Shown here piece after piece: positions 25,329-27,347 of a stretch of 64,000 nt of DNA. Position numbers and translations under genes: made by a program. The notes beneath the pieces were generated by a model. It was not told the origin of the DNA, searched no databases, and was given only the letters and a program-made list of their open reading frames with translations. The number at the start of each line of letters is the position of its first letter. The stretch's first letter is position 1. The stretch is from an uncultured Chthonomonadaceae bacterium (lineage in GTDB: Bacteria > Armatimonadota > Chthonomonadetes > Chthonomonadales > Chthonomonadaceae), in NCBI GenBank assembly GCA_963835065.1, contig CAWIEK010000039.1, positions 1-64,000 of the forward strand, in the 5' to 3' direction.

Positions 25329-26648
25329 ATGGGCGCGCGCCGGACGCTGGCGTTTACGTGCTGCGCGGCCATGTTTGTGTATGCCGCGTACCTGGGCGCA
25401 ATTGGCGTACTGCTTCCGGCTGTCGGCAAAACGTTCGGGCTTGGCTCCGCAGCGCAGGGACGCTTGTTTCCCGCCAACTTCCTCGGTTTCATACTGATTG
25501 TGCTGGTCGCCGCCCCGCTTTCGGATCGCTGGAACCGTAAAACCGTTTTGATGCTCGGTCAGGCCATGTTCGCGCTCGGATTAATCGTGTTCAGCCGCGC
25601 ATCCTCGTTCGAGATCGCCCTGGCCGCATCCCTCCTGATTGGCGGCGGCAGCGGCGCGGTAGGCGTGACTTCCAGCGCATTGGCATCGGACTTGTACCCC
25701 TTGCGACGCGGCGCGATGCTGGCGGCAATTCAAGTGGCGTTCGGATTAGGAGCCGCGCTTGGGCCGGGATTGGGCAGCGTTCTGCTCCAGCATCAAGTCT
25801 CCTGGCGACTGTTGTACGCGGGCACGGCCTTTGCCGCGTTCGCCCTGTTAGTGGCTTTGCAGGCGCAGGAGTTGCCTGGGGAAGAAGAGAAGAAAAGAAG
25901 AAGAGAAGAAAAGGAGACGGTAGGACAGGAAACAGGAAACAGGGAACAGGGAACAGAAGAGAAGACAGAAGACAGAAGACAGAAGACAGAAGACAATGCG
26001 CTATCAACTATCAACTATCAACTATCAACTCCTGATTCATCACTCATCACTCATCACTCATCACTTTCTTCCCCCTCAACCATGCTGTCCCTGCTGACGC
26101 AGCGTCCCGTTCAACTGCTGTGCCTGATGCAAATTTGTTACGCGGGGGCCGAAGTTGGCTATTTTTCGTGGATGCCTACGTATTTTCAGACACGATTGCC
26201 GGGTGGGGCAACCTTGTCCGGGGCTGTTATCAGCGTGTTCTGGCTTGCTATGACGGTTGGACGCAGCCTGACCGGCAAGTTCATGGGCAAAACCGGGTTC
26301 ATGCCGCTTTGCGCAAAATTGGCGGCGGCAGGAGCGATAGCGGCAAGCCTGACCCTGCTCTGGCACAATCCTTATGTTGTTCTCGGATTTGTAATTGTAA
26401 CGGGCCTGTGCTTTGCGGGCATTTTCATTTTGATGAGCGCGGAAGCGAGCGAACGCTATGTACACAGCCTGGGCGCGATTTTCGGTTGTATTGTCGCCTG
26501 CGGCGGCTTGGGAACTTCGCTGATTCCCTGGGCAGTCGGCGCGGTTGCGTCCACTAGCGCAGGCTGGAGCGGCGGGCTGATGCTGGTTCCCCTTGCGGCG
26601 TTGGGTGTGGCGCTTTGCGCGGTACTTCTGGCGCGGCAGAAACATTAA
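25329..26648 (+). CDS. MFS transporter with a repeat-derived insertion in the central loop (start uncertain)
   Basis: About 12 hydrophobic segments, motif A-like PLSDRWNRK, FWLAMTVGR. Confidence 0.88.
   Translation: MGARRTLAFTCCAAMFVYAAYLGAIGVLLPAVGKTFGLGSAAQGRLFPANFLGFILIVLVAAPLSDRWNRKTVLMLGQAMFALGLIVFSRASSFEIALAASLLIGGGSGAVGVTSSALASDLYPLRRGAMLAAIQVAFGLGAALGPGLGSVLLQHQVSWRLLYAGTAFAAFALLVALQAQELPGEEEKKRRREEKETVGQETGNREQGTEEKTEDRRQKTEDNALSTINYQLSTPDSSLITHHSSLSSPSTMLSLLTQRPVQLLCLMQICYAGAEVGYFSWMPTYFQTRLPGGATLSGAVISVFWLAMTVGRSLTGKFMGKTGFMPLCAKLAAAGAIAASLTLLWHNPYVVLGFVIVTGLCFAGIFILMSAEASERYVHSLGAIFGCIVACGGLGTSLIPWAVGAVASTSAGWSGGLMLVPLAALGVALCAVLLARQKH
25881..26064 (+). repeat. in-frame composite tandem-repeat cassette, copy 1
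   Basis: GA-rich block, CAGGRAA x4, GACAGAA x4, CTATCAA x4, TCATCAC x4. Confidence 0.95.
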
Positions 26649-26659
26649 TGTCGGGAAGG

Positions 26660-26681
26660 TTAGCCGCGAATGAACGCGAAT
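26660..26681 (+). repeat. decamer repeat, second copy
   Basis: ttagccgcgaatgaacgcgaat after the MFS stop. Confidence 0.7.
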
Positions 26682-26732
26682 TGCCAATCCGCAACGGGAT
26701 AAATGATTCAGGAAAGGGTTTGGAGTAAAGAA

Positions 26733-27347
26733 GTGGGCAAGATTATGGCTTTGGATGTGGGCGAGAAAACCATTGGCGTGGCGTTTTGCGAGGAGGGAAC
26801 GCGGCTGGCGTTTCCAGGCAAAACCATCTGGCGGCAGGAGGGCAAAAAGCGCGATATGGCTGCCCTGCGCCAACTGGTGGCCGACAATGACGTGTGCCGT
26901 ATCGTGGTCGGTATTCCCCTGATGCCCGACGGTTCGCATGGCCCACAGGCGGAAACCGTAAAAGCCTTCATCACTACGCTTCAAAACAACGTCCGCGTAC
27001 CCATCGTCATGCAGGACGAACACCTGTCCACGCAGGAAGCCGAACAAATTCTATTTACGCTCAAACGCCCCCGCGAACAGCACAAGCGCACGCTCAACTC
27101 CGTCGCCGCCGCGCTAATTTTGGAATGGCATCTTGAGGAAGAAGAAGAGAAGAAAAGAAGAAGAGAAGAAAAGGAGACGGTAGGACAGGAGACAGGAAAC
27201 AGGGAACAGGGAACAGAAGAGAAGACAGAAGACAGAAGACAGAAGACAGAAGACAATGCGCTATCAACTATCAACTATCAACTATCAACTCCTGATTCAT
27301 CCTTCATCCTTCATCCTTCATCCTTAACGGGTGCTGCCGATGTCTGA
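26733..27347 (+). CDS. ruvX: YqgF/RuvX pre-16S rRNA nuclease with repeat-derived C-terminal tail
   Basis: IMALDVGEKTIGVA, IVVGIPL, QDEHLSTQEA, SVAAALILE. Confidence 0.9.
   Translation: MGKIMALDVGEKTIGVAFCEEGTRLAFPGKTIWRQEGKKRDMAALRQLVADNDVCRIVVGIPLMPDGSHGPQAETVKAFITTLQNNVRVPIVMQDEHLSTQEAEQILFTLKRPREQHKRTLNSVAAALILEWHLEEEEEKKRRREEKETVGQETGNREQGTEEKTEDRRQKTEDNALSTINYQLSTPDSSFILHPSSLTGAADV
27141..27325 (+). repeat. in-frame composite tandem-repeat cassette, copy 2
   Basis: 27141-27301 matches 25881-26041 except for one base; last module is TCATCCT x4. Confidence 0.95.

Follow-up and report, generated by a model that had tools for sequence, protein, structure and literature searches.

A repeat cassette shared by the MFS and ruvX genes of a Chthonomonadaceae bacterium belongs to a genome-wide family of heptamer-arm elements with fixed sites and changing content

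The paired cassette in the MFS and ruvX genes

The window analysed here, 64,000 nucleotides of contig CAWIEK010000039.1 from an assembly of an uncultured Chthonomonadaceae bacterium (GCA_963835065.1; hereafter G000, 8.0 Mb and 92% complete), contains a gene for an MFS transporter, followed by ruvX (yqgF) and mltG/yceG. The MFS gene and ruvX each carry a cassette of short tandem repeats, and the two cassettes share a 161-bp tract, which lies in the central loop of the MFS protein and at the C terminus of RuvX (Table 1). The copies of this tract lie 1260 bp apart, are read in a common frame and differ at a single position (25931 A, 27191 G). An initial annotation, made from the letters of this DNA, had reported the match, and alignment together with analysis of open reading frames (ORFs) reproduced it. 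Both host ORFs stay open across their cassettes, and sequence similarity ends abruptly at both edges of the tract.

Most of the module list in that annotation also held, with a GA-rich stretch, CAGGRAA x4, CTATCAA x4 and, as last module, TCATCAC x4 in one copy and TTCATCC x4 in the other. However, the GACAGAA module has about five copies rather than the proposed four, and the MFS cassette, beyond the confirmed shared tract, continues to approximately position 26081. Both cassettes can be split into patches of 23-56 bp that are found elsewhere in G000, some of them spanning module junctions; the CTATCAA/TTCATCC junction, for example, has exact matches of 35 and 42 bp at G000:C16 and C49. The MFS copy switches to TCATCAC at a shared TTCATC, and its tail resembles that of a congener, G002 (7.5 Mb), whose MFS site carries a similar CCCTCAAC tail. 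The TCATCAC module and tail are likely to have been in place already as the right end of the MFS site, into which a conversion tract was probably copied from ruvX, a direction that we hold with moderate confidence. The different last modules, previously ascribed to the swap of a whole module, would more simply mark the end of this copied tract.

No third full copy of the tract was found in G000, the next best match covering 156 bp at 86.5%. Among 716 elements of at least 70 bp in this genome, the MFS and ruvX tract forms the longest near-identical pair, in line with the earlier suggestion that it was recently copied. In four public runs, no Logan contig reaches across either copy, and contigs of near relatives end there, so that the exact identity over 161 bp rests on the G000 assembly. 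An artefact of assembly or polishing, with cassettes of some kind truly present at both sites, would fit these interrupted contigs, and the assembly does contain frameshifts, such as that in the split gene described below. Against this, the two copies are not the same at one base and end in different modules, the genome has further local pairs that are nearly identical, duplicated segments of the genome are concordant at 29 of 34 elements and independent assemblies show cassettes at both sites; we consider an artefactual identity very unlikely.

The loop between the anchors of the MFS protein spans 76 amino acids here and approximately 21 in most orthologues. AlphaFold2 modelling of this protein (23 sequences) gave a predicted local distance difference test (pLDDT) score of 89.4, low only at approximately residues 200-250, and the fold is predicted to stay intact, with low confidence confined to the cassette. 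Compared with G002, synonymous changes outnumber non-synonymous changes in both the MFS gene (118 to 46 codons) and ruvX. RuvX orthologues start with MGKIM, and the true ruvX start is likely to be the GTG at 26733.

Table 1 Features of the paired cassette and its host genes, followed by other family members in the window
Feature	Position	Strand	Basis or remark
MFS transporter gene, 439 amino acids, host of cassette 1 in central loop	25329..26648	+	Pfam MFS_1
Cassette 1, in frame, net +55 amino acids versus cassette-less orthologues	25881..26081	+	Orthologue alignment; mosaic of genome patches
Shared 161-bp tract, copy 1	25881..26041	+	GA-rich 25881-25918; CAGGRAA x4 25925-25956; AGAAGAC x5 25960-25995; CTATCAA x4 26001-26030
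TCATCAC x4 and pyrimidine tail	26037..26081	+	47 bp identical to element at G000:C43:68993
ruvX (yqgF) gene	26703..27347	+	Pfam RuvX; TIGR00250 above cut-off
Cassette 2, in frame, in RuvX tail ahead of last six codons	27138..27328	+	Sequence and orthologue comparison
Shared 161-bp tract, copy 2	27141..27301	+	Pairwise match
TTCATCC x4 module	27296..27325	+	Junction to CTATCAA recurs at two other loci
mltG/yceG gene	27340..28416	+	Pfam YceG; its ATG at 27340 overlaps the ruvX stop
Non-complementary CAGGGAA / TCATCAC cassette at gene start, same modules	11498..11603	+	Module composition
Second intergenic palindromic member	37740..37863	.	Other arms at this site in G002
Typical intergenic palindromic member, AGGCATT x4 / core / CCTAATG x4	54774..54919	.	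Fold z -13.1

Directly upstream of the MFS gene, a 9-mer-type hairpin with ACCAAGA-like arms (25013-25125) lies between divergent genes. The Pfam match of an XisI-family gene at 20711-20977 ends at residue 62 of 110, and this gene is probably frameshifted. At 21192-23283, one gene, which we take to be transketolase-like, is split across two overlapping frames through either an assembly error or a real frameshift.

A genome-wide family at fixed sites

The paired cassettes belong to a family of coding and intergenic heptamer-arm elements whose sites are fixed and whose content is rewritten. G000 contains 1,899 heptamer and 281 octamer arrays, mostly of 4-5 copies and of approximately 100 unit types, which cluster into 1,421 elements; because 2 Mb of 5th-order Markov sequence yielded 0 arrays, chance is excluded. 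Among 778 pairs of adjacent modules, the order is G-rich then C-rich in 549 and the reverse in 13, so that the polarity that had been noted for both the cassettes and the palindromes extends across the genome. Module order agrees in 266 of 276 pairwise comparisons. Our context classes are approximate, because genes were called with a custom script (6,083 genes, 73% coding); by these calls, 279 of 358 multi-module elements between genes are palindromic, with a median spacer of 56 bp, compared with only 17 of 165 within genes. The palindromes mostly separate co-oriented genes (290 of 336) and extend from the upstream stop codon (median +1) to a median of 18 bp before the next start codon. Neighbouring palindromes have a unit in common in 27 of 136 cases, with 13.2 expected.

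The initial annotation had assigned the coding cassettes to the same family as the intergenic palindromes while describing their modules as not complementary, and both statements stood: the fold z values of the two cassettes are 0.68 and -1.27, compared with -13.1 for the palindrome at 54774..54919. At the same site, G002 carries a different element, with arms of GGGAGTA around a core that is unrelated. The CAGGGAA array is also present in 3 other genera (6 of the 41 genomes sampled overall). Target-site duplications were not in excess over shuffles in 337 palindromic elements, and no transposase was seen among 29 wide arm pairs. Of four Y1_Tnp matches, one has its nearest element within 1.5 kb at a distance of 1,443 bp, and the other three have none near them.

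Comparison with relatives demonstrated that the sites are old and that their content is replaced. In keeping with the initial annotation, distant orthologues lack the MFS-loop cassette and have short RuvX tails; in close relatives, however, both sites are already occupied by other cassettes. G002 has different modules at both sites; G001 lacks a cassette in the MFS loop, and its RuvX cassette is degenerate. Protein-database relatives, some of them sequences from Logan contigs, provided two further MFS-loop cassettes among 9, and different RuvX tails were present in at least 4 of 11 relatives and also in three cluster members, of which two end at a stop inside a repeat. The different cassettes seen among relatives number four for the MFS loop, and the different RuvX tails at least six. 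Such replacement bears on the proposal that one fixed cassette was newly inserted twice into empty coding sites, in the manner of a Rickettsia palindromic element. That proposal would account for the 161-bp identity and for the absence of the MFS insertion from distant orthologues, but with other cassettes at exactly both places in close relatives, no third full copy and a cassette that is not palindromic, we regard it as extremely unlikely.

The comparison of sites between G000 and G002 covered 1.2 of the 7.5 Mb of G002, with flanks 83% alike. Among 96 orthologous sites, 63 were occupied, 58 of them with wholly different units. Within genes, 25 of 30 sites were occupied in G002 (23 with wholly different units, 2 sharing some) compared with 0 of 251 random coding sites used as the control for occupancy and frame, counts to be read in the light of degenerate arrays that the detector overlooked at some 'empty' G002 sites and in some control gaps. 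Only 1 of 18 core pairs between the two genomes exceeded the 95th percentile of the null for homology. A one-to-one mapping of units between species, as in concerted drift of families, was contradicted by many-to-many pairs. One in-gene site, in a gene that presumably encodes a PriA-like protein, occurs in four states: it is empty in G001 and carries three different arm pairs with related cores in G002 and in two G000 duplicates.

Replacement is also visible within G000, in which approximately 225 kb of duplicated segments with 94-99.6% identity (23 alignments) are likely to represent strain haplotypes. Of 34 elements compared between these segments, 29 have 0-2 differing places and 5 have 9 or more, and three more changed sites broke the alignments; approximately 8 of 37 sites, about one in five, have thus changed between segments that are 98-99% identical. 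Turnover is fast and proceeds in all-or-none bursts. That most duplicated elements agree suggests that the cores are not sequencing noise. The flanks of the 8 changed sites differ by 1.2-3.1%, mostly synonymously and without a gradient, with 13-31 differences within 300 bp at three of the eight. Mutagenic tracts spreading into the flanks, and import with long diverged flanks, were both rejected on the basis of this low divergence and the lack of a gradient. At one pair (G000:C43:70727-70830 and C69:38454-38585), arms and flanks are alike (1 difference in 300 bp), but the 55-bp core carries 15, most of them transversions; in one in-gene duplicate pair, the middle module is kept and both sides are different.

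At a further site, the same stop-to-start gap holds an empty hairpin in one segment (G000:C37:183100-183225) and a gene for a PF05635 four-helix-bundle protein, of the 23S rRNA IVS type, between different arms in the other (G000:C25:13970-14560), with the ends of both elements directly abutting the same pair of stop and start codons. Each of the three PF05635 genes in G000 is enclosed by inverted arms, which are perfect x4 arrays around the two further ones (G000:C8:31944-32384 and C33:57151-57630). Separately, we observed three GxxExxY (PF13366) genes, of which one lies between inverted 9-mer arms (G000:C39:76631-76981) and two have 8-9-mer repeat flanks (G000:C19:8329-8673 and C3:174084-174431).

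In-gene cassettes and their likely translation

We counted 268 in-gene cassettes in 237 called genes, approximately 4% of the total, or 226 distinct genes after duplicates were collapsed. LeuRS and LigA, both single copies in the assembly and above the NCBIfam cut-offs, carry cassettes, and the peptide GTGNREQ is present in 135 proteins. ValRS carries cassettes at two sites (G000:C43:70822-72393 and C69:36900-38150); one of its duplicates reads through the first cassette, and in the other that site has one extra base and the gene is split.

The view that the cassettes have been filtered for coding was upheld. Stop codons are present in the units of 5 of 526 in-gene arrays, compared with 403 of 748 intergenic arrays, a comparison that is partly circular; in a non-circular test on units that are stop-free both ways, the A-rich sense was found in a ratio of 346:24 in genes and 93:80 between genes. 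The cassette peptides have a mean hydropathy of -1.41, compared with +0.72 if inverted, and are the lower of the two in 248 of 268 cases. Counted by translation, frame is kept at 26 of 30 orthologous in-gene sites, which does not differ from the controls (232 of 251); one of the four exceptions is the G002 MFS gene, which has a 1-base shift just 3' of its cassette. Multi-module cassettes in genes are non-complementary in 148 of 165 cases. Taken together, frame keeping, stop avoidance, lost complementarity and the hydrophilic bias of 346:24 point to translation, and the in-gene cassettes are thus likely to be translated, with their peptide likely to be a tolerated, disordered passenger that forms a floppy loop.

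Excision of the cassette from the RNA or the protein, so that the hosts are made without it, is an alternative to which we give very little credence. The cassettes are mostly non-complementary, they keep the frame and show a hydrophilic strand bias that the intergenic arrays lack, and a search of 24000-30000 against Rfam yielded no match at gathering score, with sub-threshold miRNA-type hairpin matches only. In genomes of this kind, the cassettes explain broken assemblies and the odd tails of annotated proteins, and their rewriting is likely to be a fast source of new peptide.

Origin of the changing content and comparison with known systems

On balance, we lean towards the view that these are in-frame members of a polar family of 7-8-base repeats at old sites, overwritten patchwise by short-tract copying, with selection likely keeping open, hydrophilic and non-pairing versions in genes. 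An element would first enter a permissive place, such as a stop-to-start gap, a loop or a tail, probably at GA-rich microhomology. Replication stalling or breakage may then lead to repair by template switching or gene conversion, with the arms (approximately 30 bp) of another element, in some cases one close by, as template; polarity and module order would be kept because the G-rich part of any donor comes ahead of its C-rich part whichever strand is read. In genes, purifying selection would remove stop-bearing and T-rich (hydrophobic) arms, and complementarity would be lost as a result. The 161-bp match would be the latest such copying event, ending at the TTCATC common to the two last modules. 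Template switching at imperfect palindromes is established in Escherichia coli, according to the available text of PMC7202029. Long near-identical pairs in G000 lie within 10 kb of each other in 3 of 40 cases, compared with 0.32% of all pairs (p 3e-4).

Several observations weigh against patchwise copying. Hairpin cores with a sibling of at least 90% identity number only 4 of 253, whereas a copy model, run as a rough simulation with replacement-to-mutation ratios of 1 to 7.5, predicts 17-66%. For 12 alleles at six changed sites, no core match was found elsewhere, and three changed sites have an old and a new core that resemble each other but have diverged by 25-40%, with flanks at approximately 2%. 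In addition, 37 of the 40 long near-identical pairs are not local, array lengths have a narrow spread (median 30 bp, with 31 of 1,899 reaching 42 bp) and our context classes come from the custom gene calls. A trigger that depends on a hairpin has no bearing on the in-gene cassettes, since these do not fold. With cores that are donor-less and diverged, faithful copying accounts for the arms and the coding mosaics but not for the cores. These call for a mutagenic step or an external pool, and a dedicated machine therefore stays under consideration.

Such a machine, which we consider possible but clearly less probable than patchwise copying, would be linked to the elements, perhaps through the PF05635 four-helix-bundle protein. 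It would recognise heptamer arms and exchange or hypermutate the content within and between them from a pool shared across strains and species, leaving the site unmoved, with empty hairpins and coding cassettes as non-autonomous targets. This would fit the location of all three PF05635 genes of G000 in inverted arms, the gene-bearing and empty elements with different arms at one site of two near-identical segments, the donor-less cores that change in bursts and the identical CAGGGAA array in other genera. The three densest of the sampled genomes (G000, G002 and G023) also have a PF05635 gene. However, G005, G029 and G030 have such a gene, yet 80 kb of each contained 0 arrays; arrays are present in G015 and in G001 (97% complete), neither of which gave a PF05635 match; and target-site duplications do not exceed shuffles. 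We know of no catalytic role for the PF05635 protein. If such a rewriting machine exists, it would turn hundreds of loops in essential proteins into hypervariable peptide slots and would explain the excess of 7-base repeats in bacteria.

A reverse transcriptase (RT) could instead write arms anew at broken ends, as telomerase does, or mutagenise cores in the manner of a diversity-generating retroelement (DGR). Repeat addition at two 3' ends would be compatible with the G-rich-first polarity on both strands and with the narrow length of approximately 4 copies. There is also a weak match of the four-helix-bundle protein to the Avd model (E 0.008 over a 70-amino-acid piece), and DRT10 is reported to produce tandem-repeat DNA (PMC12632851). 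Nevertheless, G000 has two RTs, one of a type XIII retron beside a SWIM gene and one matching a group II-type RT model over its first 70 amino acids; no PF00078 match was obtained in G023, which is 97% complete and has dense arrays; and approximately 100 unit types would require equally many templates. Adenine is the best-conserved base (0.78) in 68 cores of one family, and four other families have no clear A bias; there is thus no A-to-N signature, and DGR-like adenine mutagenesis, hinted at by one core pair, was rejected on these 68 cores. We judge an RT origin to be very unlikely. The retron (G000:C50:52482-58854), in which PADLOC identified the RT and SWIM genes, has repeat hairpins between its genes. 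At G000:C49:681456-683452, an RT gene is followed by another gene, which we presume to be cas1. Ku-dependent end joining was discarded as a candidate, as Ku was found in 1 of 41 genomes and in none of G000-G002.

Whichever process operates, G000 offers a measurable system for heptamer repeats, with fixed sites, defined units and order, and about one-fifth of sites differing at 98-99% identity, so that the spread and replacement of such repeats become testable. Here, repeat DNA likely gives bacterial proteins ordered low-complexity linkers on a scale beyond the Rickettsia case. We found no published account of ordered multi-module heptamer cassettes in proteins or of genome-wide replacement, in a search that covered subscription journals thinly.

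By the tests made, the family is not a Rickettsia-type element, a miniature inverted-repeat transposable element (MITE), a REPIN or a DGR; the comparisons below draw on the available portions of the cited papers. Rickettsia palindromic elements are approximately 150-200 bp long, lie in frame in unrelated housekeeping genes and add a peptide (PMC10969869). The in-frame presence in unrelated protein genes, 226 distinct ones here, is similar, but those elements are palindromic with a conserved peptide, whereas ours are non-palindromic mosaics of tandem modules that are replaced in place, with two full copies. REPINs consist of inverted arms around a spacer of approximately 55 bp and are extragenic, with hundreds of copies (Bertels and Rainey 2011, PMC3116915). 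The intergenic form described here likewise is an inverted doublet that forms a hairpin around a spacer; unlike in REPIN/RAYT systems, its arms are tandem arrays rather than REP palindromes, and no arms flank the four Y1 transposase matches. MITE-like terminal inverted repeats occur in the 279 of 358 palindromic multi-module intergenic elements and not in the MFS/RuvX cassette; unlike MITEs, the elements have no target-site duplication, nearly all cores are unique and no transposase was seen in the 29 arm pairs. Unlike in DGRs, variation is not adenine-specific, and neither of the two RTs in the 92% complete genome is DGR-type by the models matched.

Dispersed heptamer arrays also include the cyanobacterial short tandemly repeated repetitive (STRR) sequences. 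Described examples are GGGAATC in Xanthomonas and GGGGA(C/T)T in Nostoc (Rehm et al. 2015, PMC4692102) and TAACTGA in Beggiatoaceae (MacGregor 2015, PMC4679880); many bacteria show an excess of heptamer repeats for which no mechanism is generally agreed (PMC4692102, PMC4679880). Like our elements, these are short 7-nucleotide arrays with convergent inverted pairs, mostly intergenic, and stop codons set the orientation allowed in ORFs (PMC4692102, PMC4679880). Unlike here, intragenic copies are few, 7-11% in Xanthomonas (PMC4692102) and in 11 ORFs in Beggiatoa (PMC4679880), and the portions of these accounts available to us take single units and report length change rather than exchange of unit types or ordered multi-module cassettes. 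A further parallel is the P6b stem of the Nostoc trnL(UAA) intron, in which complementary 7-nucleotide repeats form the stem and one repeat class is repeatedly replaced whole by another (Kaasalainen et al. 2015, PMC4476775). The fixed site and the replacement of one heptamer class by another match our observations at 58 of 63 occupied sites. However, P6b is one non-coding locus with two classes, whereas the family described here comprises hundreds of sites, approximately 100 unit types and 226 protein genes, and extends to multi-module, non-pairing cassettes whose turnover is visible between segments that are 98-99% identical.

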